From: a virus
Lineage: Duplodnaviria; Caudoviricetes
DNA: 58,995 nt
Reading direction: 5' to 3' (one strand)
IMG/VR virus record: IMGVR_UViG_3300025536_000017
Coordinates: 1 to 58,995 of that record
The notes under the pieces were generated by a model that searched no databases, was not told where the DNA came from, and worked only from the letters and a program-made list of their open reading frames with translations. The position numbers and the translations under genes were made by a program. This document shows, in pieces, positions 10,101-36,776 of the stretch (positions are counted from its first letter, which is position 1; every line of letters begins with the position of its first letter).

Positions 10101-13100
10101 ATATCATCAGCAATTTCTGATCGCTCTTTCGCAAAAGCTCGATCAAAGTCAAAAACCGCGCGTAGCCCTTTGGTGAAATTACCGTAAGCAGCCTCGTCAA
10201 CTGCAACCGGCTCCATATCGTAGTTGACGCCTTCGAAGGACCGCTCGCGGCGCAAATACTGGCCTGCGGCTGCAAGCATGTTCGACACGACTTGCTGTAG
10301 AGGAATGCCGCCGCGCTGAATAAGCTCCGGCAACTGCGACGGCTTATCAACGGCCTTGGCGATATCAGTTCGCGAAAACAACGTCATGACGCGCGGCGAC
10401 TTGGCGTATGTGGCCGATGAATAGACGACTGCGCGCACCTTATCTGCCTGCCCAGGCAGACCGATTACCTCACGGAACAGCTCAGAGCGCGGCGGAGCCT
10501 TGTCCTTTTCCTCGAACATCGGCTCGCTTTCGCCAGCCGCTCCGCCTGCATTATGCGTCTCGTCCATAATGAGGAACGCTTTTGGCGCAATGCGACGAAG
10601 GAAATTGCGACGCGGCGTCTCCTGTCCTTTAACGCTATTCATCTGATCGTATGTCGTGAAAACAACATCCGGCTCAGAATCGCCATTGACGATTGCATTA
10701 AGGTTTGCGGTAGCCTTCTCTAAATTCTGCGCCTTAGAGAACGCACCATATCTTTCTGGAGGCTTTTCACCAATCTCGTTCGCTGCGTCGCGCTCCGCAA
10801 CCCACGTCACAGCGTCATCATCAAGCGGAACACTAACGCCAGAATTGGTCATCGCCATATTGATCGGGCGACCAAGCTGCTTGTCCCAACCAATATCATG
10901 AAGATCGCGCCACATATCGCCGTAAAGATCGGGCTTTTCGGTCACAAAGACAGGGATTGCGCCGTTCTTTTTGGCGTAGGTGATAAAGGCGGCAACGCAG
11001 TTGTGCGTCACAATGAAATCATCGGTAACGTAAAGATGAGCAGGATCGTCAACCGTAACACATTGACATTCCTCACGCCCGACAAATTTGATGCTCTTGA
11101 TGTAACGAGTAGGTGGATATTTGGCCCACTCTTTAACTCGCCCAGACTTACGGGAAAGCCTGAACGGCGAAACTCCTGATGGCATTCTTATAAATACGAC
11201 ATGGCAATCCTTATGAGTGGTTTTCTTAATCGACCTAGTTGCGGTCCCCCCAAGCGACCTAACTATAAACACAACATCGTCAGCCAGCGACGATGAAACA
11301 GAATAATAAACACTAGCTCCACTCTTATTAATGGTCCCGTCGGTATCCATTAGACCCTGGAGAACAGCCAATCGCACATTTGTAGAATTCCACTTATAAA
11401 TCTCTGGCACAAACTTGTTATCTGCTACAACTCCAGCCAAGCCAATTGAGCGCATTTTGGCAGGAATCGCATCAGGTTGATTCCTGCGGCCAGTTCTAAC
11501 TTCGCGAACTATATTTCTATGCGTATCTCGACCAGATTTACGCAACACAAATCCTACAGGAATTGCCGCCTCAACAAGATCGGCCATTTCTTGTTCGGCT
11601 ACAACTATCTGCGTGTCTCCATTCTTCCTGATATGTCCATCTCCGAGGCACGCTCCAACAAGGTATGGATCAAGAGGAGTATCGCGATGTGGAATCGAAA
11701 TAGGACTAACAAGCGGAACAGAATAAATGCGCGTGATGTTTTTTGCTATTTCACTCGTCGTCAGAATCTTATAGTCAGCATAAATGCTCCACGGAGTATG
11801 TTTTGCTGCATATCTTGAATTGCGTGTGCGAGTAGCCCACAGATGATCTGCCGACGCTCTTGTTTTGCTACCGTCGCTAAATTCAATCTCAAATACGTCA
11901 ATTACGCCTTGCGGATGCAGATGCGTAACTTTAGTTGGGCGACCATTGAGAGCAATAACTTCATCTCCTATCCTAATATCCCCCATCAGAGTCCATCCGT
12001 TCGGAGTTAAAAGTTTAGCACTTAACGGCTGACTCCTTCCTTTCCCAATACCAGTTTGATCGCCAATGATAAATCCGTCGCCCTTCTCAATATTCCAGAT
12101 ACCCATTGCGATAGCGTCGATCTGCTCACCAGAAAAATATTTACCTAGTTCTTCCGGCTTACGATCAAGCGCCCGCGCAACATATTCGTCTATGTCTCCG
12201 ACCTCTTGCTGAATGCGCCCAAACGCACTGTAAATCGCATCCTTCAAATTGGCTGGAACAAGCGTATTCAACGAATCGCCTTCGCGAGACGCCGGCTCGT
12301 AGGATGACTGTCCGTCCTGATTGCGTTCTACAGTCCGCTTTCCATTGGAATCAGCGCGAGTATCAGCTCGCTTACGCTGTCCGCTCTCCACGGTTGGCTT
12401 TCGTGGTTCAGCGCCCACGGAAGGCCCTCCTGTAGCAGATTCGCGTTGTCCGCTATCAGGCTTTGCGCCCACATCTTTGGGTTGCTGCGGCTTGGCTTCG
12501 ACATTGGGCCGAGACTCGCTTGTTCCAGTTGATCCTCTGCCCACATCATCGTTTGTTGCGGGTTTGGATCGCGCTGAAGTAGCGTTTCCAGTCGGAGCGC
12601 CACCTTCTGTAGAAGCTGCTTGTGTGACGCCATTTAGTTTATCTCCTATTTCACTCCACGACTGAAGCAGCGTCGGCGGCGTTTTAGTTAGCGGATCACG
12701 CTTGCCCCATGGCTCGCCAGATGTATTCTTTCCATCGATAACCACAACGTCAACCGGCCACTGAGCGCCCTGTTTTGCATACAGCTTGCCGTCAACGGTA
12801 AACACGTCTGTCACATTATATTGTGTGAACAGCTTGTGATAGAAAGACCTCTTTGCGGGAGCGGTATATCCCTTGGCGCGCTCTTTCGGGTCCATGCCCT
12901 TGACGCCGCCGAGAATAAGCACGGCGCGGCCATCTGGAGCCATCGCCTTCAGCGCATTCAGCGCAATGGCATGGTCAATTTGATCTGTGCGGTAGCCGTC
13001 AATCTTCCACGACTTCTTTCTGCCGCCATCGGTCACCGTTCCAAATGGCGGATTGGCGATGACGGCCGCCATCTTTCCGACTTGCTGCTTGAACATCTCC

Positions 13101-16100
13101 GGCTTTGTGGCGTCATCCATAATCGGCGAGAAACCAAGATCGTCGAGCGCCTTGGCGCGCGTCGGATTGATCTCGGCAACTGTAGCGTTGTCTGGTTCAA
13201 CGTCAATCAGTAGCATGCCGTTGCCGGCTGACGGCTCCAGAACATCAGCTCTCGGCTCAATACCGGCGAGGCGCGAGGCGACATAGGCAAGCGGGGCAGG
13301 GGTAGAATAGGCTTGCTCAGAAATGCTTGCCGACGTGCGCGCAGACAGGTTTGGCTGCTTATTGTAGAGCCGAACAAGCTGCTCAAATGTCGCTACTGAC
13401 GACTCGCCAGCCTCACGATTGATTGCAACGATGTTACGGGCGCTTTGCACGACGGCGCGCTCGACAAGCTCATCGACAAATTTATTGAACGGGACACCTT
13501 CGGGCGCTTTAGCACCTACCTCATCAGCGAGCTTTCGCGCCTCCATAATATTGCGGAATGCCTTTTGATCACTATCGCCTTCAAGCATGCCGCGCACATG
13601 CGCGATGAATGCGGAGTCGCCTTTGGTTGAGTCTGGCGCTTGCGTGGTGTTGTTTGGCTCCGCAGCGGGCTTCTCATTCTTCGAAAGATTATTGGCGATA
13701 AGGTCTTCGATGATCGCCACATTCACTTCGTGCTGCTTAAGTGTTTGCCGCAATCCAATTAAGGCAATAGAAGCCTCACCAAGCCGCCTATCCTTAACTT
13801 GTGGGTCGTAACCAAGCTCCAGCGTCTTCTCGATGCGCTTCTTCATGCGCTCGACGGCCTCCTTAGCTTTCGGAAGCTGCGATTCGTATTCCTCCCGATA
13901 GCGGCGCTTGTTCAACTCACCGAGCGCGTTGCGCGAACCATCGATGTAATGATCATCAAACCGCTCGATTTTCTCCGAAGCCTCGGCCGGCTTCTTATCT
14001 TCCGTCGCCTTCGTGCCAGACTCACTCGCCGCAACCTCATCGGCCGTCTTGTATTCAGGATGCAAGTCGCGGTTTGTCGAAATTCCCATGCCGCCGCGAG
14101 ATGGAACCATTCCGACCGGCTCTGTTTTTACAATGCCGTCTTCCTTGATACTGCGGACGCCGCGAGAGTCTTCCCAAAGGTCTTTGCCTTCGGCGTTCTG
14201 CCCGACAAGTTTACGACCCTTGGCGTCACTTACACCGCCATCCGATTCATCGGCAGGCTTTGAATCAGGAACAGCTTTTGCGCCATCGGAACTAGCCTCT
14301 GAGGAACCGTCGCGTTCTCCAACAGAAGTGCCTCGAACGCTTCCCTGTCCACCTGCGGCGTCTCCGGCTCCAGGCGATACAGCTCCAGCAGCGCTTCCCA
14401 CCCCGTCATTAGAAACAGATGGTCTGCTGGCAGATACATCGGGTTGTTGCTCGACATTATCGCCACCCTTCGGAACGATCTGAAATTTGCGGTCTTTTGT
14501 ATTTTTGACTTCATGGGTTTCAGCAAGCCATGTGTTCTGCCTCATGTAGGAGTTTGCAGCCGCCGCAGCTCCCCAAAAATTGTTTTTGATATGAGCTAGA
14601 ACTTGCTTGCGCTTCTCGTCGCTCGGCTGATTGACGTTTTCTGTCGCCGCAGTCGGAGCCTCTTGCTTTGTTGGCTTCTGCGGCGCACTTGGCGCGGGCG
14701 CTTGCGTGGCATTAGCTGGAGCCTTGTTGATGGCCGCGAAAAGATTGTCTCTTTCTTCCTTGCGCAGATACGGCCACGGAGTATTAACGCGCTCGGGATC
14801 AACGCCGGCTTCCTTGGCGTATCCAATCTTGTCTGCGATCGTCAGATCATTCCAGAATTTGGTTGTTTCGCTGATTTTAGGTGTCGCTGTCTGCGCTTCT
14901 TCTTTCGTATCAGCGCTATAGATTCCTCCTACATTCAACTTACCCGGCTTAGCGTCGCGCGCTTGCGCCTTGATAGCGTCTCGGACCTTCGCGCCATGCG
15001 CGCGCACCTGATCCTCGCTCATGCCGGTAGCATCAGAAACAAACTTCACATAATCAGAGTCGCGCTTCGATGGCGTCTTTTGCGCAGCGATATATGCTGC
15101 CTTGTCGATATCGTTATCGAACGAAAGATCGAACTGCTTTGCGCCGAACGAATAGCGCGGCTTCGCGCCAGCAAGGTCTGCGCCAAGTGATTTAGGTTTC
15201 TCCGTTGACTTTTGAACCTTTGGTTCTTCCGCCTTTGTGGCATTGGCAAACTCAGGATCACCATTCGCAAATCGACGAAGATCATCCGGTGACTTAATTC
15301 TTCCAGTGTCGAAAAGCGGCTTAGCCGCCTTCAAAACCGGGTCATCAACGCCCGCGAACTTCGTCTTTCCATCCGAAAGCGCCTTAAAGAGACCGTCGTA
15401 GAGATTGCCGGTAATAGCTTTGCCAATTTCGCCACCAGCCCCAGACAAGCCGGTAGCTGACGGTTCCTTGACACCGCGCCTCGCAAGCTCATCATCGATA
15501 CGCGCGATCTGTTGCCAAATCTTCGGAGCGATGTTCTCGGAAGCGCGGCGCGCTTGCGCAACAAGATCGGCGCGACGCTTGACAAGCAAGTCGTCTTCCT
15601 GATCTTCGAGCGCCGGCGGTCCGGGCTTCGGCTTCCGCGTGACCGTCTGTTGCGCCGCCTCAGAAAGCGATTCAGCCTGCGCAGGAGCGCCCGTTCTCGG
15701 CTGTGGCGCTTCAACACCACCCTGTTGAGCGTCCTGCGCAGTCGGCTCGACCGCCCCCATAGCTGCCGGCGAAGGTTCCTCGGATTGGGGAGGGGCTGCT
15801 ACGGGAGCGGTCGATTGCGTCGGCGCATCGAGAAGCTCGACCGCGCCAGATGTGACATCTTGATTGGTGATGAGCATTTCCTGCCCATCATCCGTTTTGA
15901 ACACGAAGTCGTCGGCGGTTTGCTCGACAACAGTTCCTTCAACCTCACCATCATCGTCTCGAACGACAATGCGCTTGCCGCCCAACTCAGCGAGAGAACC
16001 GCCGGCCGGCGATCCAGCGCGCAGCGCGCCTGTCAGACCGCCGCCCTGCGGCGTCGGAGGCGTCTCTGGACCACGCGGAGGAGGCTGCGGAGCTGGCGGA

Positions 16101-17743
16101 GCGCCGGTGTCATCAAGCGTCGTGACGCTACCATGAATATCGCCGTCGGCTGGCTGCACTACATCAGACGCAGGCGGCGCGCCTGCGTCTTCAGCCTGCG
16201 GAGGCATTCCAGCGGGCGCGGCGCTGCCGGCGGTATCGACGCGGTAATCAGGCGGAGCCTCCAACATGGGCTTCTGTGCGGCCTTGGCGTCAGCGACGAA
16301 TTGATCGATCTTAGCGGTCGATGACGGCCCCTGACGCTGCATCGCGCCGCCGGCGGCGGCCGGCGCGCCGCCGCCCATAGCGCCAGCAATGAAGTCGCCG
16401 AAAGTCTGCTCGGCAACGTCAGTCTGCGCGCCGGTCGCCTGATTCAGGCCAGCGCGCTGCGTGACGCCTTCGGCCGCTTCCTGTGTTCCTTCTTCAAGTG
16501 CGCCGAGCGATCCACGACCAAGCACGCGACCGGGTAGGCCGCTGCGCTCCAAAATGCCGCTCGCAGGAGATACGAGCTTCGAAGTGGCCGCGCCACCAAG
16601 CGCAGACACAGGCAGCGTGAACAGAAACGCCATACGACCAGCGGCGCTCTTTGTGATCCGCAACGCCTGATCTGGCGTCTTTCCTTCCTTGATGGCCTCT
16701 TTATAGATAGGGAGCTGCTCGCGCTCTTGCGGCGACATGGCGTCAATCGTCTTGCGCGCATCGTCTGCGGCAGCACCGCCACCCTGCAATCCACCAATTG
16801 CAGCGCCAGCGATCGCCGACCCGCGCGAAGCAACGCCGCCAGCGACAACAGGAAGCATCTGCCCGAAGATATCGAGACCGAGATACGCATAACCGCGCAG
16901 CGACGGATTCTTGCCGAGCGTCCATGTGCCCGGCTTCAAAATATTCCCGCCAGGAGACGAATCAGCAATTGCCTGCTTTGTTTCAGGTGAGACACCTTCT
17001 TGAACGCCGGCTCCCCATTTATTGAAAGCCTCGGCGAGCGCATCGCCCATAGAGCGATATTCAGGAATGCCGGCGGCATGTCTTACTGCTTGCGAGACCT
17101 CGGCAGCGCCCTGAATCGTTGCGCCGGCACCCTTTGCTGCGCCGCCAACGACTTGCAGACCTACATCACCAATTTCGCTATTTTGCTGCGCTGCTTGCGG
17201 CGCATCCTGAGATGGCGCTACCGACGGATCGACAGGATAATATTGATCCGCCAAGCGCTTCGAGCGCGACAAAATATCCTGCAAATATTCGTCGGTCTGC
17301 GGTCCCCACTGACCCCTATCCGGCCCGCCGACATACGCCTTAATGGCGTCGTCAACAGATAGCCCTTGATCCATGTAGTTCTTGATCTTTTTAGCGGCGC
17401 TATCAATGGCTTGCGATGGAATGTAGGGGTTGATGCCGTCGCGCGCAACGTCGTCATCAGACATTGCGATGATGCCACGGCGACGCGATCCGACGCCTTG
17501 CGATCTCGCAAGAGGATTGAAGTTCGAATCCTTCTCGGCCATGCCGAGAAGGACATCGACCGGCACGCCGTATTTGTCGGCCGCACCCTCGAACATCGAG
17601 AGTCGCTTAGCGTCCGCTGATGGCTGCGATGGCGGCGCGACTGATGGCGATTCTGGCCTTCCGCTATTGGCAAACTCGATCGCCGCATTCAGGCGATCTT
17701 GAGCGTTTAATTTCGCGTATTCGCCTAAATCAGGGCCAGCCAT
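4178..17743 (-). CDS. Giant DarB-like polyvalent virion/ejection protein (SLT-like, N6-adenine MTase, strawberry-notch SF2 helicase with intein, HExxH, PLxRFG domain)
   Basis: 4521 aa; N-terminal SLT-like fold; LEPSAGNG and NPPF MTase motifs (about 13.0-13.25 kb); GDQTGIGKG, DETH, SSAT, QMLGRVHRTGQ helicase motifs; HEAFH (about 7.48 kb); FPLARFG (about 6.24 kb). Confidence 0.9.
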   Translation of the reverse strand: MAGPDLGEYAKLNAQDRLNAAIEFANSGRPESPSVAPPSQPSADAKRLSMFEGAADKYGVPVDVLLGMAEKDSNFNPLARSQGVGSRRRGIIAMSDDDVARDGINPYIPSQAIDSAAKKIKNYMDQGLSVDDAIKAYVGGPDRGQWGPQTDEYLQDILSRSKRLADQYYPVDPSVAPSQDAPQAAQQNSEIGDVGLQVVGGAAKGAGATIQGAAEVSQAVRHAAGIPEYRSMGDALAEAFNKWGAGVQEGVSPETKQAIADSSPGGNILKPGTWTLGKNPSLRGYAYLGLDIFGQMLPVVAGGVASRGSAIAGAAIGGLQGGGAAADDARKTIDAMSPQEREQLPIYKEAIKEGKTPDQALRITKSAAGRMAFLFTLPVSALGGAATSKLVSPASGILERSGLPGRVLGRGSLGALEEGTQEAAEGVTQRAGLNQATGAQTDVAEQTFGDFIAGAMGGGAPAAAGGAMQRQGPSSTAKIDQFVADAKAAQKPMLEAPPDYRVDTAGSAAPAGMPPQAEDAGAPPASDVVQPADGDIHGSVTTLDDTGAPPAPQPPPRGPETPPTPQGGGLTGALRAGSPAGGSLAELGGKRIVVRDDDGEVEGTVVEQTADDFVFKTDDGQEMLITNQDVTSGAVELLDAPTQSTAPVAAPPQSEEPSPAAMGAVEPTAQDAQQGGVEAPQPRTGAPAQAESLSEAAQQTVTRKPKPGPPALEDQEDDLLVKRRADLVAQARRASENIAPKIWQQIARIDDELARRGVKEPSATGLSGAGGEIGKAITGNLYDGLFKALSDGKTKFAGVDDPVLKAAKPLFDTGRIKSPDDLRRFANGDPEFANATKAEEPKVQKSTEKPKSLGADLAGAKPRYSFGAKQFDLSFDNDIDKAAYIAAQKTPSKRDSDYVKFVSDATGMSEDQVRAHGAKVRDAIKAQARDAKPGKLNVGGIYSADTKEEAQTATPKISETTKFWNDLTIADKIGYAKEAGVDPERVNTPWPYLRKEERDNLFAAINKAPANATQAPAPSAPQKPTKQEAPTAATENVNQPSDEKRKQVLAHIKNNFWGAAAAANSYMRQNTWLAETHEVKNTKDRKFQIVPKGGDNVEQQPDVSASRPSVSNDGVGSAAGAVSPGAGDAAGGQGSVRGTSVGERDGSSEASSDGAKAVPDSKPADESDGGVSDAKGRKLVGQNAEGKDLWEDSRGVRSIKEDGIVKTEPVGMVPSRGGMGISTNRDLHPEYKTADEVAASESGTKATEDKKPAEASEKIERFDDHYIDGSRNALGELNKRRYREEYESQLPKAKEAVERMKKRIEKTLELGYDPQVKDRRLGEASIALIGLRQTLKQHEVNVAIIEDLIANNLSKNEKPAAEPNNTTQAPDSTKGDSAFIAHVRGMLEGDSDQKAFRNIMEARKLADEVGAKAPEGVPFNKFVDELVERAVVQSARNIVAINREAGESSVATFEQLVRLYNKQPNLSARTSASISEQAYSTPAPLAYVASRLAGIEPRADVLEPSAGNGMLLIDVEPDNATVAEINPTRAKALDDLGFSPIMDDATKPEMFKQQVGKMAAVIANPPFGTVTDGGRKKSWKIDGYRTDQIDHAIALNALKAMAPDGRAVLILGGVKGMDPKERAKGYTAPAKRSFYHKLFTQYNVTDVFTVDGKLYAKQGAQWPVDVVVIDGKNTSGEPWGKRDPLTKTPPTLLQSWSEIGDKLNGVTQAASTEGGAPTGNATSARSKPATNDDVGRGSTGTSESRPNVEAKPQQPKDVGAKPDSGQRESATGGPSVGAEPRKPTVESGQRKRADTRADSNGKRTVERNQDGQSSYEPASREGDSLNTLVPANLKDAIYSAFGRIQQEVGDIDEYVARALDRKPEELGKYFSGEQIDAIAMGIWNIEKGDGFIIGDQTGIGKGRSQPLSAKLLTPNGWTLMGDIRIGDEVIALNGRPTKVTHLHPQGVIDVFEIEFSDGSKTRASADHLWATRTRNSRYAAKHTPWSIYADYKILTTSEIAKNITRIYSVPLVSPISIPHRDTPLDPYLVGACLGDGHIRKNGDTQIVVAEQEMADLVEAAIPVGFVLRKSGRDTHRNIVREVRTGRRNQPDAIPAKMRSIGLAGVVADNKFVPEIYKWNSTNVRLAVLQGLMDTDGTINKSGASVYYSVSSSLADDVVFIVRSLGGTATRSIKKTTHKDCHVVFIRMPSGVSPFRLSRKSGRVKEWAKYPPTRYIKSIKFVGREECQCVTVDDPAHLYVTDDFIVTHNCVAAFITYAKKNGAIPVFVTEKPDLYGDMWRDLHDIGWDKQLGRPINMAMTNSGVSVPLDDDAVTWVAERDAANEIGEKPPERYGAFSKAQNLEKATANLNAIVNGDSEPDVVFTTYDQMNSVKGQETPRRNFLRRIAPKAFLIMDETHNAGGAAGESEPMFEEKDKAPPRSELFREVIGLPGQADKVRAVVYSSATYAKSPRVMTLFSRTDIAKAVDKPSQLPELIQRGGIPLQQVVSNMLAAAGQYLRRERSFEGVNYDMEPVAVDEAAYGNFTKGLRAVFDFDRAFAKERSEIADDIAAEMGAGSQRDGSVGEGGASSTTFSSVMHNIIGQMILSITSQEAGKRAIAAIKAGERPVIALSKTNEAFLSDFVDSEGLKVGDIVDLSFVDMLKRYLERTRRITVKIDKETKHRIMIDFNQMDPETVAKYNEAMSFLNQLNLGDLPISPIDAIRNEIQKAGYSVAEVTGRDIMLDYSQKSATLSQRPKTERGPAGKKVSIRKFNNGELDVLILNRSGSTGVSMHASKDPKVKDKRRRRMILVEADPNIDTHMQMLGRVHRTGQVVTPNYSQLVADIPATVRPTAVLMRKMASLNANTTGSAKSKFSADAVDFMNKYGDDVVADVLNESADIADLLNVEIPGDEIPHGYAAKVTGRLTLLEPAEQQEFIDNIVGRYKALIEKLDAEGKNDLEAKYVDLQARTLESQVTKPGTGLSPFESAVNLEKVSVKSQGRAMTIGDIVEQIKKWSPAARVTSDNLSDMADEARKETSERIEKITESARAYNNTVWSLLKDDGAKQRHREEFENNMRRWRSLVDILSPGQIVHIELDDGEMTPAIVLDVRDVGGKSGSPIALSKWAAVFALPDSRRTVQQSFTWLKTENDTTAKAGASLVQRNSGGMRITQEQIAEQFEKARAEGRETRYMFTGNILAAFDQVKGGGQIINHSMEDGSVRPAILMGRKFAPKDFMAKMSVRFKTGSQVMKFLDVAHQPSLKSSDGIVSVNKSYHGYIFTAMGSKRTGGKYYADHRVRAVYDSWEKRQGMMVARIDDRALAQRLVEALMSVDAIFETTKEQSAARGVIEQDAPKASMGSGNLGMTAAALKKRMSVGKDSDIIDSAISSGRVVIHDDASTIPAGAPSAPDGMRIQGVTTPDGVIHLVAANLTPANARAVLLHEAFHSAVEPLIGSRQFEALLGRIQGATEAAIDRGDKSGWWAEALRRAGEAGAPSAEEVAAYAIENREQAPAGIREIVDNILGAVKAWALRFFGRQFGAVTPGEVRALALAALRDANMPSPPTDGGSGGYRFSLANDAKGHVESARNWMSDHITDFMTGSKFAEPSRSILAFVPVRPLFLEMAKGLPSARRYLATKGLMDTMRNDMAISTDAILQKWFKWANKVKIQGATPRRANRDANKNLMDMMHETTLVGVDPSMPFKQIMTPGDHEALADADPSSRQYQIAAERQARDQTRRAAYGDLKKRYDAMPQIAQELYREVRDYYKKMYDEAQELVIDNVARAMQAAITRAERAHADEMQRINDDGLEGDERERAIDAADKKLSSVRGRANRTKGARLRRLRQQFESNKIQEPYFPLARFGSYYVIVRDKASKAIVSFSKFERSSESSKFAKEMSADPNLDVSEGHDLNDKEWKDQIDPNFIVGLDDILTDNNIGDGVRDQIWQSYLRTLPDLSIRKHSIHRKGTAGFNKDAMRAFAKQMFHAGHQMARLKYGLDLTEHMENIAREAKDAPDKKRAAALHNEMNFAHEYAMNPDGKAWSYNASSMSFLWTMAFNLSSALVNIDQTISKGLGILAFDLETNAGIKNAASELAKATADFMRGKGRISDSSNLTDAERDAIAKGYDSGVIDRTQAHELAAIAESGVGYSPMWQSVMKVAGLPMHHTERFNREVTFLAAFRLAKKAGMNDANAFVKASDLTFATHYETQSSAKPRFMRGNLARVAFALKSYQANVLFRAFWDFNQSIKGATPEERKMALGRFTTMVLMSLPMAGVRGMFAYSTVMAIASFLYGLAGGDDDDLDEKLRKAIVDAAGDNMLSLAVAGMLLDGVPGYVTGTALSDRIGMADMWFRSVDRDMNPDQKWMYLIDQLGGPGVGILHQGFVAANDYAEGKDVRLGERVAPAFIRNLLKAYRYAAQGVTDKDGNPIVEYVPIEDIIKQAMGLGPAQIKERMDRNNSQRNKQRRITNERSQALAAAARARMGQGDDDAARRKVDAFNEKYPSFRITGKTITQSVKARNARSRRMEFGVDLNPKLAPLIKETTSGTIY
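11000..12034 (-). mobile_element. Intein with LAGLIDADG homing endonuclease in the DarB-like helicase
   Basis: GIGKGR|SQPLSAKLLTPNGW...DDFIVTHN|C; ASADHLW block B; GACLGDG and QGLMDTDG; 345 aa; lower GC than flanks. Confidence 0.92.
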
Positions 17744-17807
17744 TCCCGCCTCGCGTCCTGTCAGAATCGTCTGATCTTATAAACCCAAAGCGTCAGAAAA
17801 TAAAATC

Positions 17808-20470: not shown

Positions 20471-21637
20471 TCAGGCGGCCTTTTTCATGATGCTACGTGG
20501 TTGCAGACGACGCGCGGCTTTCTTGCCGCTATCGAGAGATTCGACCTTCTCGGCAAGCTCCTTCACCGCACCCATCGTGATGCCAATTGCGCTGATCGCA
20601 TCAATTGATTTACCATCACCAAGCCCGGTTGCCGCATTCCAATCTTGCGCCATCGGCCCCACATGAACCTCGCGATCCGGTCCTTCGCCTTCCTTGTAGC
20701 GCCAAGATTCAATCGGTATTTTCTTGATCGCGTCGAGAACTCCGCGAGCTTCTTTGCGGTCCTCTTTAGCATCACGATCGCTCTTGTAGATGCCGAAACC
20801 AAGCCCAACTGCGCTGCCAAGACCGCCGAGAAGCGCGTTTTGATTAGCAGCGTTCGTCTGATTTTGCTGGTTAATAAGACCAACCTGACTGTTGTAGATG
20901 TTGCCCCATTGCTGACCGGCCTGACCATAGAGACCGCCAGCACCCTGGTAGCCAGTGTTCATGATATTTTGGTTTGCGAGCCAGCTGTTCTGCGCGCCGA
21001 GCGCGTTGCCGGCGGCGCTCGATCCAGCCCCAACGCCAGCGCCGAGCGCCGAGAGCGACTGGCTCGGAAGGTTAGCGCCGATATTGAGCGCGTCGCCCTG
21101 CAACCCCATAGCCTGCGTGCGGAGCGTGCTGCGAGCGTTATTGGCCGCTCCAGCGGCCCCTAGCGCGGTCTGCGTCGCCTGAGCGCGGTCGATGCCATGA
21201 TATGCCCCCGACGCCGGATTGATGCCCCTGGCGGCCATGCTGCGGTCTGTGGCGGCCTTCTGGATCGCCGCATTGCTGAGCACGTCGGCGCGGGCTTCTT
21301 CCGCAGCCTTCGCCTGCGACGCGGCGCTGTCCCAATTATTGGCCTTGTCGATATATTTGTCTTGGAGCGGCTGGAAAACGCTCTTGTAGCGCGCGCGATC
21401 TTCGCTCGCCCACTGGCTCGCCTGAGTCATCGAATCAAGCTGCGCCTGCGTCACCTTGCCGGTCAGTTCATCGATGCCGGCTTGACGCTCATTCCCGACG
21501 GCGAATTGCTCTTTGGCGAAATTGAGCCAATCCTGCCCGAGTGCGGTTTGCTGCTGAGCGGCCTGCGCCTGCTGCATCGCCGAGAACATAGCGAACGGGT
21601 CGCTTGAAGCTGAGGAACTACCGCCGAAAAGTGACAT
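20471..21637 (-). CDS. Virion/ejection protein with C-terminal peptidase S74 (intramolecular chaperone) domain
   Basis: Gln/Ala/Gly-rich body, then SDRDAKE...WRYK...HVGPMAQD...AVKEL. Confidence 0.8.
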   Translation of the reverse strand: MSLFGGSSSASSDPFAMFSAMQQAQAAQQQTALGQDWLNFAKEQFAVGNERQAGIDELTGKVTQAQLDSMTQASQWASEDRARYKSVFQPLQDKYIDKANNWDSAASQAKAAEEARADVLSNAAIQKAATDRSMAARGINPASGAYHGIDRAQATQTALGAAGAANNARSTLRTQAMGLQGDALNIGANLPSQSLSALGAGVGAGSSAAGNALGAQNSWLANQNIMNTGYQGAGGLYGQAGQQWGNIYNSQVGLINQQNQTNAANQNALLGGLGSAVGLGFGIYKSDRDAKEDRKEARGVLDAIKKIPIESWRYKEGEGPDREVHVGPMAQDWNAATGLGDGKSIDAISAIGITMGAVKELAEKVESLDSGKKAARRLQPRSIMKKAA

Positions 21638-21699
21638 ATCAGAATCCTCTGAGCTTCGTCTGATTTTTACCTTACATCATCAGAAATTCTACGACAACG

Positions 21700-29979: not shown

Positions 29980-31068
29980 TTAGAGCGGCGCGCTCGCGGT
30001 ATCGATGGCGATTACGCCGAAGTCCTTGGAGTTGAACCGCGTCTTCTTCACACCGATGATGGTGCCGGAGCCGAAAATCGGCTCGTTTTTGAAGTCGATC
30101 AGCTCCTCCTCCCAGGGGAAGGTGAGGCCGCCAGCCATTCCGAAGGCGACGACGCCTGCCTGCTTGCCAAGGAACAGCGCGCGCGCCGCCTCAACCGCGC
30201 CAGCGCCGTAATCGTTGAAGCGGATGACGCTTTCGTGCGAGTGCAGGATGACGTTGTTGATCATCCCCAAGCCTCCCTTGAAGATCGGGTTGTCGCGACC
30301 CTCGGCCGAAGCAGCCGCCTTCTGGATTTCGAGCCAACCAGCCGAGTCAGAAACACGCAGATCGCGCTCCTGATGCGGCGTCATGACCAGAACATAACGA
30401 CCCTCGCCAGATGTCATAACCGGGCACATATTGGCCGTGCTCGGGTCGAGGGAGCGCATCATGCGCGCCTCGGCGACGATGTTCTCGATGTTGTTCCGCG
30501 TCAGCTTGTCGCCGGTGTCAACGTCCGACTTCTGCGTGGCGTTGCCGCCGTAGAATAGATGGCCGGTATCGGGAGCCGTGATCGCGTTGCCAGCGTGACC
30601 AGTCCAACTCGTCGGCTCAAGGAAGTCCTCGTTGATGCCGCGCGCGCCGGAGAGGTAGATGAAAAACAGCTCGTCCATATACTGCTTCCAGTAATCGGAC
30701 AGGCGTGCCAGCGCGACCTCGCGAAGATTGTGCAGCGTGCGCTTGCGAGTCATTTTGCCGCCGGCCGACACGCTCTTGCGGGTCTGGTCGATGTAGACCT
30801 CATCGGTGAAGAAGCGCAGATTTTCCTCATTGCCGAGCAGGCGATCGTCGCCGACGGTCGGCCGGCCGCGCAGCGTCACGGAAAGGTCGAACGAAACCTT
30901 GTCGCCCGCGTCGCCTTCCAGGTCGCTCTTGCGCTGAATGATGGAATTTTCGTCCTCGCCGATGAACTTACGGGCGAAATAGGACTTCTTCTGAACCTCG
31001 GTAACGAGCTTGGCAGACCAGCGCTTTACGGCTTTGGCGTCTGACGTGGTGATGACGGTGCGAGTCAT
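29980..31068 (-). CDS. Major capsid protein, N4-gp56 family (DUF4043)
   Basis: AVKRWS, GDKVSFDL, IDQ.RKSV..GGKMTRKRT.H.LR, NPIFKGGLG, KKTRFN.KDFGVIAIDT; strong codon bias. Confidence 0.93.
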   Translation of the reverse strand: MTRTVITTSDAKAVKRWSAKLVTEVQKKSYFARKFIGEDENSIIQRKSDLEGDAGDKVSFDLSVTLRGRPTVGDDRLLGNEENLRFFTDEVYIDQTRKSVSAGGKMTRKRTLHNLREVALARLSDYWKQYMDELFFIYLSGARGINEDFLEPTSWTGHAGNAITAPDTGHLFYGGNATQKSDVDTGDKLTRNNIENIVAEARMMRSLDPSTANMCPVMTSGEGRYVLVMTPHQERDLRVSDSAGWLEIQKAAASAEGRDNPIFKGGLGMINNVILHSHESVIRFNDYGAGAVEAARALFLGKQAGVVAFGMAGGLTFPWEEELIDFKNEPIFGSGTIIGVKKTRFNSKDFGVIAIDTASAPL

Positions 31069-31078
31069 GGTCGCAATT

Positions 31079-31162
31079 CTCCTGATGGTGAAAAATCACA
31101 GCATCAGGCACGTGCAGCGCCGTCAGACTTGGATATGCTTAGCCTCGGACACGTGCAGCGTC
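31079..31162 (-). promoter_or_regulatory. Structured MCP leader: two UGCAC-loop hairpins plus an SD-sequestering stem
   Basis: GACGC-TGCAC-GTGTC (31162-31148), GGCGC-TGCAC-GTGCC (31121-31107), CCTGATG/CATCAGG stem (31108-31081) overlapping AGGAG. Confidence 0.6.
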
Positions 31163-31196
31163 GTCACTATCGGAATCAGTAATATCTGATTGCTAC

Positions 31197-31394
31197 CTAG
31201 CCCGCAAGTGGAGGGAATATCGATTTTTCGCGCGCCTTGCTCAAAGCTACATCTACGGCGCGGATGGCCTCAACCGACTTGCTGGATGGCTTGTCGATCG
31301 CGATACGAGCCTTCACCCCTTTTTTCACCTTAAGGGTAAAAGACACGTCGCCCACGACAACCTTATCGCCGACAGCAAGATCAATGATAAACAT
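31197..31394 (-). CDS. CsrA/RsmA-like (carbon storage regulator fold) protein, divergent
   Basis: 65 aa; MFIIDLAVGDKVVVGDVSFT...KG..ARIAIDKP aligns by eye with CsrA MLILTRRVGETLMIGD...VKG..VRIG..AP; Bcep22-like phages are known to encode CsrA-like genes. Confidence 0.65.
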   Translation of the reverse strand: MFIIDLAVGDKVVVGDVSFTLKVKKGVKARIAIDKPSSKSVEAIRAVDVALSKAREKSIFPPLAG

Positions 31395-31441
31395 CCGCGC
31401 TATCTCTCTACCAGTTTGTGCAAAACCGCCGCGCGACGAGT

Positions 31442-31552
31442 TCAGTTGCAGCGGTTAGAATGCACGACGCATTTCGCGACAGAGCACCCTGAAAGCGTCG
31501 CAGCGCCGACAAGGACCGCCAGCATGGACGCGACGAAGATCAGCGCGCGCAT
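31442..31552 (-). CDS. Very small lipoprotein (36 aa)
   Basis: MRALIFVASMLAVLVGAATLSGC-SVAKCVVHSNRCN; LSGC lipobox; starts 2 nt after the upstream stop; below ORF-track cutoff. Confidence 0.6.
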   Translation of the reverse strand: MRALIFVASMLAVLVGAATLSGCSVAKCVVHSNRCN

Positions 31553-31554
31553 TT

Positions 31555-31872
31555 TTATAGCCCATCCAATGTTTTTCGAAGATCGTGCAGGGCCGCGTTT
31601 GCATCGTTTATGTTTCTGGGCAGATCAACAAGCGCCCACGCGCATTCAACGCGGCACCAGCGGCGACTAGACGAGAAGATAACAAATTCTCTGCCCGCAA
31701 GCGTTCGCCTCTCACCAGCCACCGGATGAAGCCACTGGTGAGATCTGAGCTGCGCGCCGAATCCTCCAATCCATGTGTAGAGCCGTCCAGAGAGCCAATA
31801 GAAATGACTGTCATGATAAGGCGACTTCATTCCATTGCCGTTGCCGAAGATGATATGGTCAATTTCAAACAT
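31555..31872 (-). CDS. Hypothetical protein
   Basis: 105-aa ORF with GAGGG RBS in operon orientation. Confidence 0.55.
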   Translation of the reverse strand: MFEIDHIIFGNGNGMKSPYHDSHFYWLSGRLYTWIGGFGAQLRSHQWLHPVAGERRTLAGREFVIFSSSRRWCRVECAWALVDLPRNINDANAALHDLRKTLDGL

Positions 31873-31898
31873 TGCTGACCCTCATAGTGTTGCGCGCA

Positions 31899-31979
31899 TC
31901 ATTCGCCTATCCAACGCATAAACGCATCGATGATGTGCAGCGCGATGAAGATCAGCGCGATGTATAGAAACAGTTCCAT
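31899..31979 (-). CDS. Small membrane peptide (26 aa)
   Basis: GGGAGGG RBS; MELFLYIALIFIALHIIDAFMRWIGE. Confidence 0.5.
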   Translation of the reverse strand: MELFLYIALIFIALHIIDAFMRWIGE

Positions 31980-31998
31980 CGCGCCGCCCTCCCTGGGT

Positions 31999-32928
31999 TT
32001 AATTAGCTTCGAGATACGCCTGCTGCTGCGACGCCGACAGCTTGGCGAACGCCTTCTCGAACTTAACTGGGTTCGATTCGGCCAAGCGGTCGAGCGCGGC
32101 GAACTCGCCGCCGTCTGCGGACTCAATCTCCGCTGAAGGCACATTGGCGAGCGTAGGAGGGGCCTGGACGCGGCGAGGCTGTTTCCCGGCCTCCTTCGTC
32201 GTCCCTGACTTCTGCGGCGCTTCCTTGCCGCCCGTCAGCGCGGCGATGTCGCTCGTGAAAATCCGATGCGCCTTATCGAGCATCTGCCGATCCGAAAGGT
32301 TCTGATTGTTGGCGTCGGCCGTGACCTTACGAACAACGGAATCAAACGCGAGCTTCATGCTCTCGGATGCAGTAATCGCCTTTCCGGGTCCGTTCATGAA
32401 GCGGCCGACTTCCGCAAACCATGCGTTGTCGCGGGCCTGCGCCGTCATCTCCTCGGCCAGCTCGTTCTTGCGCATCTGCCATTCGATCTCGCCGCGATTC
32501 TTGGCGATCTCCTTCAGGCCGCTCGCAAGTTCGCCGGAAGTGATATCTCCCTCGTCAAACCTCGTCTGTAGATCGGCTTCCTTGTCGTCGAGCACGGCGA
32601 GCGCCGCCTTCGCTTGATCGACTGGCGCGGCCCGCAGCGGAGCGTCTACGACCGTAGGGCCTTCTCCACCGTCGTCATCGCCGGCTCCCGCATCATCGCC
32701 AGAACCGTTTCCGTCGTCGCCAGCGTCGGCGTTGGCGCTTGCATCAGTATTTTCTGACGAAGCAGACGCAGGCTTTCCGTCCTGTGCGCTCTCTGCATCA
32801 TCATCATCGCCAGCTTCGATGTCCCCATCATCGCCTTCGTCCGCACCATCGTCATCTCCTTCAAGAGCGGCGCGTTCCTCGTCCGACAGTATCGGCTCGA
32901 ACTTGTCGTCATCTTTTTCATCGGCCAT
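31999..32928 (-). CDS. Capsid scaffolding protein
   Basis: Acidic N-terminus, coiled coil, PPTLANVP.A...FAALDRL C-terminus; between portal and MCP. Confidence 0.75.
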   Translation of the reverse strand: MADEKDDDKFEPILSDEERAALEGDDDGADEGDDGDIEAGDDDDAESAQDGKPASASSENTDASANADAGDDGNGSGDDAGAGDDDGGEGPTVVDAPLRAAPVDQAKAALAVLDDKEADLQTRFDEGDITSGELASGLKEIAKNRGEIEWQMRKNELAEEMTAQARDNAWFAEVGRFMNGPGKAITASESMKLAFDSVVRKVTADANNQNLSDRQMLDKAHRIFTSDIAALTGGKEAPQKSGTTKEAGKQPRRVQAPPTLANVPSAEIESADGGEFAALDRLAESNPVKFEKAFAKLSASQQQAYLEAN

Positions 32929-34445: not shown

Positions 34446-36776
34446 TCAAATCACTCCCATGGGTTGAGCAGTCGGCGCTGAACCTTCTGCTGCTTGCTGT
34501 GCGGCTTGCTGCTCTTGCATAGCCGCTTCTTCTTGCAGCGCTTGCTGCTCGAACTCTTGCGTTTGCATCTGTCTGGCTTCTTCAAACGCCTCATCATCCT
34601 CATGCTCTGTGCGGCTCTTGAATCCAGCTTCATGCAGCACGCCATCTGCTACTGGAACCGCAGGCGGAGCGGACAACATGGCGATAGCTGTTTCGAGCGC
34701 AGCCTTTTGCGCGGCGACATTTTGGTTCGCGATCTCGGCGAGGATTTTGCGCGCGGCGTTCTTGGCGTCGCCGTCCGCCTTTGCTGCCTGCGCGCCCTTT
34801 AGAGCCGCGCTGGCTTGCTTTTCGGCGATCTCGGCCCGCTGTAGCGCCTTGGCCATTTCGGCCTGCTCCTGGGCCTCCTGCGCCTTGGCGATCTCCTGCG
34901 GCGTCGGCTCCTCTGCATCCGGGTCTCGCATGCCAGTTTGTTGCCGGATGCGGTTCACGATCTCGTCGCGGTTTGGAATATCCATTCCTTCGACAAGCAG
35001 ATCGAGCATGATGATAGCCATCTGCGGCGCGACAGGCGCGAGCTGCTGCAACAACTGCAACAGCTCCTCGCTCTGCGCTTGCCGCACGGATGCGCGCCAG
35101 TCGTCTTCCGATATGACGTAATCCGCCTTGGTGCGAATGATATCGTTCTCTGGAAGTCCGTCATTGACCGTGATGTATTCCGGCGTGCCGCGCATATTGG
35201 TTATGCGAAAGCTTTTTTCCTCAGTGAAAAACTGCTCGATGAGAGACAGCTTCTTTTCGCCATGGACCTGCTTCGCGTAGCGCAAATTGTCGAACACATT
35301 GGCGAGCGCTGTGGTTGACTGCTCCTGCCGCTTGCCAATGGCGACGCCGCTATTGGCGTTGGTTTGCCGACCCATGTATTCGTCTGTGACGCCCGACACC
35401 GATTGAATCATCGCGATGTTGCGACTCATCAATTCAAGATGCGCGGGCGCAAGCTCTCGGTCGGCATTCAGTTCAAGACTCTTGTTGGCTTTTTTGACGA
35501 TGATTGCGTTAGGATTCGCAACTTCTTCCGCCAGTTCATCCAGGTCATCAACAGCGCCTTCGTCCATAATGACCTTGTTGGACGACAAGATCGCCAGCGC
35601 CTTCGAAGCGCGCTTGTTGATATCGACCTGAATGTCGCGCAGCACGCGAATAATGCCGTATGGCAGGCCGTTCTTGCCGCGCCTGTTGCACCAGATTGGC
35701 GTGAAGGGGAACTTGTTGTGCCGATATGGAGACTGCGAAATGTAGAGTAGACCCTTCACGCACATGATTGCGACATGCACGCGCATATCTACCTTTTCGA
35801 CAATCGCAGCGCGACCAGCTCTAATTTCATCCTCGTGCGCTTCGTGGCCTTCCTCATAGGCTTGGCCGCTAAAGTCGCCGCCGCGTAGTTTCTTGACCTT
35901 GGTTGGATGGCGGAACCAGATTTCAATCAGTCGCACGCGGCGACGATTGTATTCAAACTCAACGTCCGATCGATCGAATACACCTCCCTCGAACATCTCG
36001 ATAGAGTCCATCGGCTCATCGCCGTAAATTCCATCGACCAACAAGCTATCGGTTTCGTAGGCGGCAAGCTGGATCAATTTGGCGCGCTGCGGGAACATCG
36101 CCTCGGCGATATCCTCATCAACCCATTTAGTTCGAATCTGGTAGCGGCCGTCCTCAAGAGCGCGATGCGTCGATGCTGAGTCCCAAAGCATATTGCGCCA
36201 GGATTCATGTCGATCATAGACCGGCTCGCCGTCATCGCCTTCGCTAAGCCCGCACTCCAACCAGCCGACGCCGACCTTAATCGCATCCTCGAACGCCGAC
36301 GACGTTGCGAACTGCGACATGTTCACATCGTCAATGTATTTCATTAGCTGCGTTTTGCGCTCTGCCGGCTTCGATCCATCCTTGCGGCGAGGCAGAATGC
36401 GGAAATCAGAACGCGCACGTTTCTCCGTGCCTGTGATTACATCGAGCGTCGGCTTGAGAACGTTGTAGACGATCGGAATCTGGCCTCTATCAGTGAGAAT
36501 TTCGGCGTCCGTCGTATCCCATTGGATGTTGTCGTAGTTGTCTTCGTCAATGTCCATTTCTCGGCGATTGTCGCTCTGTCGTCCAAGTTCACGGCGACAC
36601 ATGCCCATGAGTTTCTTGAAAAGCGCTCGGTTTTTATCGTTGTCCAACTCGCTGCGCTGCGGTTTAGCCGTGGCCTTTTCTGCGGTCGGAAGCCTGTTAA
36701 TTGCTGCCTCAGTCGTGCGACGGCCTTCGTTCAAATCCATGCCGGAGTGATCGGGATAATCGTCAGGTATCATCAC
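34446..36776 (-). CDS. Portal protein
   Basis: 776 aa; YDN.QW, RGQ.P.VYN, FPFTPIW..R...GLPYG.IR..RDIQ.DINKRASKAL, SGVAI..RQEQ. Confidence 0.9.
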   Translation of the reverse strand: MMIPDDYPDHSGMDLNEGRRTTEAAINRLPTAEKATAKPQRSELDNDKNRALFKKLMGMCRRELGRQSDNRREMDIDEDNYDNIQWDTTDAEILTDRGQIPIVYNVLKPTLDVITGTEKRARSDFRILPRRKDGSKPAERKTQLMKYIDDVNMSQFATSSAFEDAIKVGVGWLECGLSEGDDGEPVYDRHESWRNMLWDSASTHRALEDGRYQIRTKWVDEDIAEAMFPQRAKLIQLAAYETDSLLVDGIYGDEPMDSIEMFEGGVFDRSDVEFEYNRRRVRLIEIWFRHPTKVKKLRGGDFSGQAYEEGHEAHEDEIRAGRAAIVEKVDMRVHVAIMCVKGLLYISQSPYRHNKFPFTPIWCNRRGKNGLPYGIIRVLRDIQVDINKRASKALAILSSNKVIMDEGAVDDLDELAEEVANPNAIIVKKANKSLELNADRELAPAHLELMSRNIAMIQSVSGVTDEYMGRQTNANSGVAIGKRQEQSTTALANVFDNLRYAKQVHGEKKLSLIEQFFTEEKSFRITNMRGTPEYITVNDGLPENDIIRTKADYVISEDDWRASVRQAQSEELLQLLQQLAPVAPQMAIIMLDLLVEGMDIPNRDEIVNRIRQQTGMRDPDAEEPTPQEIAKAQEAQEQAEMAKALQRAEIAEKQASAALKGAQAAKADGDAKNAARKILAEIANQNVAAQKAALETAIAMLSAPPAVPVADGVLHEAGFKSRTEHEDDEAFEEARQMQTQEFEQQALQEEAAMQEQQAAQQAAEGSAPTAQPMGVI

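Follow-up and report, generated by a model that had tools for sequence, protein, structure and literature searches.

CsrA proteins need a GGA motif in their RNA, and mutagenesis and structures have assigned their RNA contacts to basic residues at positions 6, 7 and 44. Translational activation through the opening of a sequestering helix is established for Escherichia coli CsrA on ymdA and for the Com protein of phage Mu on mom mRNA, while in the coat-protein operators of MS2 and PP7 and in the case of T4 RegA a phage-private protein reads a hairpin loop at the start site; MS2 and PP7 are also natural examples of re-tuned, mutually orthogonal loop specificities. Here we describe a related arrangement in a complete-looking virus record of the Caudoviricetes (IMG/VR record IMGVR_UViG_3300025536_000017; 58,995 nucleotides (nt), the whole of which is called the window below), in which a 65-amino-acid (aa) CsrA-like gene is separated from the major capsid gene by a 128-nt gap that holds two small hairpins, all on the minus strand. 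On balance, the sequence comparisons lead us to favor a reading in which this gene is a member of a phage lineage of CsrA proteins and the capsid-leader hairpins are its putative cognate RNA operator for capsid translation.

The closest described proteins are Bcep22 gp54, JC1 gp47 and CSP3 orf23 of the Lessieviruses (phrog_8397), which belong to the same subfamily and lie in the same position upstream of the capsid gene, and from which the window differs in the low identity of its protein (~20-30%) and in its changed hairpin loop. The Lessievirus csrA-like gene is called a moron of unknown role in the passages that deal with it (PMC9144972, PMC10269572, PMC7366521), and host manipulation has been proposed for a phage csrA-like gene in the relevant part of another paper (PMC8450108). 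A further account, in the section concerned, describes a role in the phage life cycle as untested so far and a knockdown in another phage as giving smaller plaques (PMC11879866). Within the portions of the literature covered by our full-text search, no paper linked the csrA-like gene to a capsid-leader hairpin, and the family-level pairing of gene and hairpin outlined below from sequence comparisons appears to be new.

Profile, Pfam and fold matches together identify the 65-aa protein as a CsrA-family homolog with a CsrA-like predicted fold. A 72-member family profile headed by the window protein matched RsmE (2jpp_A) at an expect value (E) of 6.4e-13, positions 1-46 aligning to 1-46, and E. 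coli CsrA at E 5.8e-11, among nine CsrA-family PDB sequences matched at E 6.4e-13 to 6.5e-7. Pfam CsrA (PF02599) was matched individually by 45 of the 72 members at E <=0.01. The window protein itself matched the PHROG family phrog_8397 ('CsrA-like regulator') at E 1.2e-4. An initial phmmer comparison also matched it to the small open reading frames (ORFs) found at the same place in relatives, including Bcep22 gp54, a 'CsrA-like regulator protein'. Searched on its own it gave no match in Pfam at E up to 1, none by tblastn in phage records at E up to 10 and no close relative in an IMG/VR scan, and a homologous-protein search returned a single match. Its AlphaFold (AF2) model has a predicted local distance difference test score (pLDDT) of 81, rising above 90 for residues 1-40, with strands at 11-14, 17-25 and 28-34 and a helix at 49-53. 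The first 11 Foldseek ranks are all CsrA, RsmA or RsmE chains (root-mean-square deviation 0.6-0.8 A over 44 columns, E 0.014-0.1), and a VIA structure comparison listed only CsrA-family entries, the top seven at Z 4.5-6.0.

The protein is thus similar to CsrA, RsmA and RsmE in its homology over residues 1-46, its predicted fold, its small size and a presumably dimeric state, and differs from them in being phage-borne, in being fixed beside a capsid gene and in its RNA-contact residues. Aligned through the family profile, which matches RsmE over 1-46, D5, L6 and A7 stand opposite T5, R6 and R7 of CsrA, and V41, E42, A43, I44 and R45 opposite V, H, R44, E and E. The basic residues at CsrA positions 6, 7 and 44 are therefore replaced in the window (L6, A7, A43), with R45 one position later. 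R6 is missing from the whole subfamily, where R or K occurs at position 7 in most members and at position 44 in some; the window also lacks R7 and R44. Both the CsrA-like nature of the protein and the loss of the TRR and HREE residues had been proposed from the sequence of the window, and both are borne out. As a functional type, the window lacks two canonical CsrA features, the basic contact residues and GGA in the hairpin loops. A sponge small RNA, as in CsrA systems, was not noticed, and no systematic search for one was made.

To place this locus among its relatives, loci were retrieved through the capsid, yielding 31 loci in a first IMG/VR scan, a further 80 in an IMG/VR profile scan, 55 from GTDB genomes and 11 from JGI metagenomes, some of them sharing contigs and most of them prophages of Alphaproteobacteria and Burkholderiales. 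The IMG/VR, GTDB and JGI scans contained no capsid relative above 68% identity, and closer relatives are known only from three contigs, X2, X3 and X4. An iterated search over 171 sources recovered a small ORF just upstream of the capsid gene (117 ORF hits; 81 distinct protein-leader pairs). Members of the subfamily are typically short head-module ORFs (~55-80 aa) that precede a capsid gene of the N4-gp56 type (Phage_capsid_3), a pattern to which the window conforms, as does Bcep22, whose gp54 gene takes the same place. The gene stays beside the capsid gene over a wide divergence, with capsid identity down to ~45%, and all five of the five phages or contigs in which it is not adjacent still encode exactly one copy elsewhere.

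This gene is accompanied by an equally widespread leader element. Of 100 loci scanned with a covariance model built without the window, 87 show a coding-strand hairpin of the form GCGC-A-N-G-A-(N)-GUGC, located 18-62 nt upstream of the capsid ATG, and the leader of Bcep22 has the same hairpin with loop AGGAU. As in CsrA/Rsm targets, these are hairpin loops near a Shine-Dalgarno (SD) sequence, and they read GGA or N-GA; they depart from CsrA sites in their conserved GCGC/GUGC stem and variable first G (U in 33, G in 23, A in 13 and C in 1 of 70 presumptive sites, with N-GA in 70/70), and the window departs further with its loop UGCAC. The loci missed by the model carry, by eye, mostly the same kind of loop on other stems, including GGCU-AUGAC-GGCC (L007, L005), GGGC-AUGGAA-GUCC (L162, L143) and GCAG-GAG-CUGC (L070, L076, L111). 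The original prediction had expected twin hairpins in homologous leaders. A hairpin is indeed there, typically as a single copy; apart from the window, two copies occur only in L165, a Luteimonas prophage with a distant capsid (51% identity), whose hairpins (818-839 and 861-882, loops AAGA and AUGA) are spaced 43 nt apart.

Several properties of the element suggest that it behaves as RNA rather than as DNA, as had been proposed. A G-U pair is kept in 49 of 53 seed sequences, at a position where the conserved G-T mismatch makes sense only as G-U. The fifth, outer pair occurs as six pair types and is paired in 36/53 seeds, giving a covariation score of 0.213, compared with 0.137 +/- 0.015 for shuffled alignments (0/500 reach 0.213) and 0.077-0.131 for slid partners, and whole stems have been swapped, as listed above. 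Orientation always matches the downstream gene: in 13 loci with a gene divergent from the capsid gene, a second site lies on the other strand, oriented with that gene. These observations, together with a family motif that is non-palindromic and a site that covaries with the start-codon region, make it very unlikely that the repeats act at the DNA level, as operator or promoter sequences recognized by a polymerase or a DNA-binding regulator. Such a role would be in keeping with the TATAGT-like box ~10 nt before each site of POI1126 and Atu_ph08, with sequence that is more conserved than structure and, in the window, with a palindromic core, GCACGTGC, whose copies lie about four helical turns apart. 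The window does contain a better candidate for a DNA operator in the ATCAG/CTGAT palindrome, to which we return below.

The sites are also not confined to the capsid gene. When whole records were scanned with the family hairpin model and the sites then read individually, POI1126 had five, all in late-gene leaders (virion component, tail-fiber-type, giant DarB-like, endolysin-type and capsid genes), and Agrobacterium phage Atu_ph08 had four, every one with loop AUGA. In Atu_ph08 (L002, 2377-2432) the annotated capsid start (2390) falls inside the leader hairpin, and the sequence suggests that the start lies ~40 nt further downstream, after an SD.

In many of these leaders the hairpin loop together with the 3' arm can base-pair with the spacer and the AUG, and the free leader is therefore predicted to form a start-burying helix. 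In POI1126, CAUGACGUG pairs with CACGUCAUG; its AUGAC loops are paired with CGUCAUG, and the sole site with an AUGAU loop has CAUCAUG. Pairing of loop and 3' arm with the spacer and AUG is stronger within a phage than across phages (-10.2 vs -7.9 kcal/mol), 20 of 58 leaders ranking in the best tenth. The minimum-energy fold of the relatives is one long helix that buries SD, spacer and AUG (-19 to -34 kcal/mol), the probability of the small hairpin is predicted to be ~0 in 57/64 free leaders, and with the small hairpin enforced, the start region is predicted to go from 0.27 to 0.50 unpaired, with a rise in 54/61 leaders. This modeling suggests that the hairpin of the relatives competes with the start-burying helix, leading to activation by anti-sequestration, with classical CsrA-mode repression, in which loop and SD are bridged, as the alternative. 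We hypothesize that a protein dimer would bind the loop and hold the small hairpin, which would open the start site and switch on translation of the capsid and other late proteins. This logic, predicted for the relatives' leaders, would be analogous to that of Mu Com on mom and CsrA on ymdA, where a protein on an upstream hairpin exposes the start site, though Com is a zinc-finger protein unrelated to CsrA and the coupling in the window is weak.

A long helix that is predicted to dominate in the free leader could also do its work without any protein. The leader would then be purely cis-acting, as a self-sequestering translation attenuator, a stabilizing 5' structure or a site processed by a double-strand RNase, and the protein would have host mRNAs as its targets; the link between protein and hairpin comes from comparative evidence, and the literature, in the passages concerned, treats the gene as a moron or possible host-defense suppressor (PMC9144972, PMC8450108, PMC7366521). 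We consider this explanation unlikely. The loop keeps GA, the key part of the CsrA motif (though those bases could pair otherwise), gene and hairpin co-occur in 5/5 cases in which they are unlinked, and the gene remains fixed beside the capsid gene even where capsids are only ~45% identical. Moreover, hosts such as Burkholderia and Sinorhizobium are described, in the passage on this point, as having no csrA of their own (PMC7366521), and therefore offer no host Csr network to hijack.

In the window, the operator appears doubled. The gap holds a single family of direct repeats, two copies of 26 nt, of which the exact 11-nt core occurs only twice in the 58,995 nt; allowing one mismatch gives four matches in the window compared with 2.27 expected, which is no enrichment. 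Two repeat copies 41 nt apart, each forming a 5-base-pair (bp) hairpin with loop UGCAC, had been read from the sequence beforehand, and we find them as described, each hairpin including one G-U pair. Their sole difference had been given as a compensatory A-U/G-C pair, which is correct within the 15-nt hairpins and not for the longer repeats, which differ at further positions outside the stems. Hairpin 2 and its flanks align column for column with the hairpin of four relatives (L120, L045, L038, L026), and its start, 56 nt before the end of the ATG, is inside the family range. Stem, position and flanks thus match the family hairpin, whereas the loop differs. Among ~100 leaders, the window is the only case of a loop without GA. 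Its two leader hairpins and a third hairpin upstream of the CsrA-like gene read UGCAC; its SD, AGGAG, does contain GGA. The spacing of 41 nt would be compatible with a dimer that has two RNA-binding faces, and we take the pair as still acting together on capsid translation.

Downstream of the twins, a stem-loop that covers part of the SD had also been pointed out, and it folds well: -13.9 kcal/mol in isolation, with a mean pair probability of 0.84-0.98 in four transcript variants. The 151-nt leader as a whole is modestly more stable than shuffled sequence (z -1.9; 8/200 shuffles fold as well), and, GCACGUG being self-complementary, the two repeats are predicted to pair with one another in the naked leader RNA. 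Hairpin 2 and the SD stem have 2 nt in common, and the original prediction proposed on this basis that the protein might activate translation by freeing the SD. Activation of this kind fits the modeled relatives and fits the window poorly, where, with such weak coupling to the SD stem, we lean only slightly towards activation over repression.

Several results weigh against a leader operator read by its neighboring protein, in the family and particularly in the window. The loop G and A are invariant in 53/53 seed sequences that were chosen by a rule requiring the inner four pairs and rewarding GA in the loop, and the resulting family model favors GA. The GCGC/GUGC stem is so conserved that most pairs never vary, and the structural covariation signal therefore comes largely from a single pair plus a few variant lineages. 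Family-wide, R or K at position 44 accompanies 18 of 28 GGA loops and 5 of 43 other loops (Fisher p 5e-6, uncorrected), but this link loses significance on the capsid tree, which offers ~6 independent contrasts (sign test median p 0.5; on average 2.2 with the residue changing the same way, 0.0 the other way and 3.8 without difference), and GGA loops show no family-wide link with a basic residue at position 7. In the window itself, the family model scores hairpin 2 at chance level (10.7 bits, E 2.6), because its loop is without GA, and does not list hairpin 1. The small hairpins are disfavored in the free-RNA ensemble (pair probability <=0.02; mean 0.135 for hairpin 2 in the shortest transcript variant), enforcing hairpin 2 moves predicted start-site accessibility little (0.62 to 0.66), and the start-region complementarity that defines the relatives' switch is missing (-3.9 kcal/mol, rank 0.95). 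The third hairpin is unconserved, with no such site in relatives.

Whether the loop of the window follows its protein can be followed most closely in the nearest relatives. The nearest capsid relative in the family set, L120 (branch support 91), has loop UGGAU together with R7 and R44. X2 and X3, from two other metagenome studies, are nearly identical to the window in capsid gene and leader (~99% in the capsid gene), and their hairpin 1 reads UGGAC, with G instead of C at 31155 (minus strand). Given GGA in hairpin 1 of such close relatives, the loop change in the window is therefore recent. Their CsrA-like allele differs from that of the window at ~30 of 99 listed positions, in a comparison covering the C-terminal half, and has Thr rather than Arg at position 44 despite the UGGAC loop. 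X4 (~97% identical) keeps both UGCAC, in a comparison covering hairpin 1 as it does for X3, and the window's allele; the P0002 protein, 97% identical, is also the window's allele. Loop state therefore tracks protein allele in four near relatives, which counts as one event. This fits co-inheritance of loop and protein, as judged from sequence, and may also reflect simple linkage across a recombination boundary near 31155-31194.

The stretch 31155-31400 is mosaic relative to X2 and X3, with a ~99% identical capsid gene on one side of that boundary and a CsrA-like gene differing at ~30% of positions on the other, which looks like allelic replacement of the regulator. At 31400-31424, 23 nt of the window are replaced in X4 by 312 different ones, and the contigs of X2 and X3 are interrupted at these same two points, indicating either a deletion in the window or an insertion in the relatives.

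The loop change may reflect either re-tuned specificity or relaxed control. A re-tuned recognition pair is conceivable, in which the A7/A43 protein would read GCA rather than GGA, all operators would have been converted, and the pair would be orthogonal to sister GGA alleles of the X2/X3 type. We regard this as a tentative possibility, raised by the pairing of UGGAC with a different allele in X2 and X3 and resting on a single lineage. The broader proposal that protein and loop co-evolved from GGA to GCA remains a hypothesis, given a single non-GA lineage, a family-wide association that loses significance on the capsid tree and the Thr44 of X2/X3. The comparison with MS2 and PP7 extends to orthogonality only by hypothesis, and those proteins, like RegA, have unrelated folds and act as repressors. 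If true, re-tuning would represent natural specificity switching within the CsrA fold, in a family whose job would be the activation of late translation by anti-sequestration.

The window operator may alternatively be decaying or relaxed. The G-to-C change in the loop would then abolish recognition, the protein without R7 and R44 would no longer control the capsid leader and would have other targets or be on its way to being lost, and the SD stem-loop alone would govern capsid translation. The change does remove a base needed by CsrA proteins from a site where GA is invariant in every other case observed, the close relatives X2 and X3 retain GGA in hairpin 1, and in the window the start-region complementarity is lost and the sites go unrecognized by the family model. 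Against decay, the same changed loop is present in both hairpins, whose stems keep pairing through the compensatory A-U/G-C difference. The protein is intact, has a confident CsrA-fold model and is 97% conserved in a second contig, and loop state follows allele in the near relatives, though as one event. We therefore think decay rather unlikely, and continue to favor the hairpins as a cognate operator of the CsrA-like protein.

The third UGCAC-loop hairpin, upstream of the CsrA-like gene, is built on a stem unrelated to the twins. Hairpins with this loop and stems of at least 4 bp number four in the whole window on both strands, three of them within 31107-31428; three same-loop hairpins within 400 nt are reached by 2 of the 1024 possible pentaloops, two of the three here belonging to the same repeat pair. 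The remaining one straddles a breakpoint missing in close relatives, and the family as a whole does not share a hairpin ahead of the CsrA-like gene (12/80 loci vs 88/720 control windows). From its sequence and position it may be an autoregulatory site or a junction accident.

Other scans of the region added few candidates. Rfam covariance models over 30900-31700 returned two chance-level rows (E 4.1 and 5.1), far under gathering scores, and the other matches of the family model in the window (E 0.11-8.9) are inside coding regions or on the non-coding strand. The best of them (30449-30471, minus strand, GCGC-AUGAU-GCGC; 16.5 bits, E 0.11) is inside the capsid gene and encoded by the codons of a conserved R-M-M-R motif. 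L054, L042 and L117 have a match at the same offset, 597 nt into the capsid gene, and L127 has one 6 nt earlier; it may be a coding coincidence or an internal site. In addition, 31081-31095, in the SD stem region, is 87% complementary over 15 nt to 31321-31335, within approximately codons 20-25 of the CsrA-like gene, which makes long-range pairing or translational coupling possible.

The late genes of the window lie on the minus strand in the order portal, acidic 309-aa protein, 36-aa ORF, 65-aa CsrA-like ORF, gap and major capsid gene (Table 1). Palindromes of the form ATCAG-N(3-20)-CTGAT occur at seven sites in the window (10106, 21638, 31175, 36899, 37344, 40246 and 54821) compared with 1.38 expected, a number reached by 0/100 shuffles. 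Several are just upstream of late genes, as at 31175-31190 ahead of the capsid leader and at 21638-21664 before the gene at 20471-21637, and the palindrome is a candidate DNA operator or promoter element by sequence. A sigma-70 promoter scan of 30900-32100 found 0 sites; a hand-picked -10-like GATAGT (31171-31166) was dropped because it is changed, and thus without conservation, in X2, X3 and X4. The window also encodes a 4521-aa ORF (4178-17743, minus strand), and the giant gene of Bcep22 is annotated as a DarB-like antirestriction protein; the leader of the giant ORF in the window (17744-17807) is without a hairpin site, unlike the giant-gene leader of POI1126.

Table 1. Features of the capsid leader and neighboring late genes in the 58,995-nt window.
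Feature	Position	Strand	Remarks
Major capsid protein gene	29980-31068	minus	Pfam Phage_capsid_3, E 2.9e-66; 57-68% identity to relatives' capsid genes
SD stem-loop CCUGAUG...CAUCAGG	31108-31081	minus	3' arm covers first three bases of the AGGAG Shine-Dalgarno (31079-31083)
Two 26-nt direct repeats	31100-31125 and 31141-31166 (span 31100-31166)	minus	85% identity, spacing 41
Hairpin 2 (proximal) GGCGC-UGCAC-GUGCC	31121-31107	minus	positional homolog of the family's conserved leader hairpin
Hairpin 1 (distal) GACGC-UGCAC-GUGUC	31162-31148	minus	isolated fold -5.3 kcal/mol
Palindrome ATCAG-N6-CTGAT	31175-31190		between CsrA-like stop codon and hairpin 1; no strand; candidate DNA-level operator, separate from the RNA hairpins
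CsrA-family gene, 65 aa	31197-31394	minus	phage subfamily; L6, A7, A43 at CsrA R6, R7, R44
Third UGCAC-loop hairpin CGGUUU-UGCAC-AAACUG	31428-31412	minus	6-bp stem unrelated to twins; -3.6 kcal/mol; 17 nt before CsrA-like ATG
36-aa lipoprotein-like ORF	31442-31552	minus	signal peptide and L-S-G-C lipobox; directly upstream of CsrA-like gene; below ORF-list cut-off
Acidic 309-aa protein	31999-32928	minus	
Portal gene	34446-36776	minus	PHROG portal

The comparative sequence data give good support to the general reading of the protein as a private CsrA-like regulator that controls capsid translation, and the proposal first raised for the window, of a translational operator private to the phage on its capsid mRNA, is much strengthened. 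The re-tuning to GCA and the activation via the SD stem that were proposed for the window in particular remain hypotheses. The comparative data assign the phage csrA gene a concrete putative job, the dedicated control of capsid mRNA and other late mRNAs by way of a conserved leader hairpin predicted to compete with a start-burying helix. If true, this would account for the fixed place of the gene beside the capsid gene, even where the host lacks CsrA, and would add a protein-operated RNA switch to the control of phage late genes. It would also provide natural loop variants (GGA, UGA, AGA, CGA and GCA) with matched proteins in which to study how a small fold changes its specificity, and such loop-protein pairs could become orthogonal translational parts.

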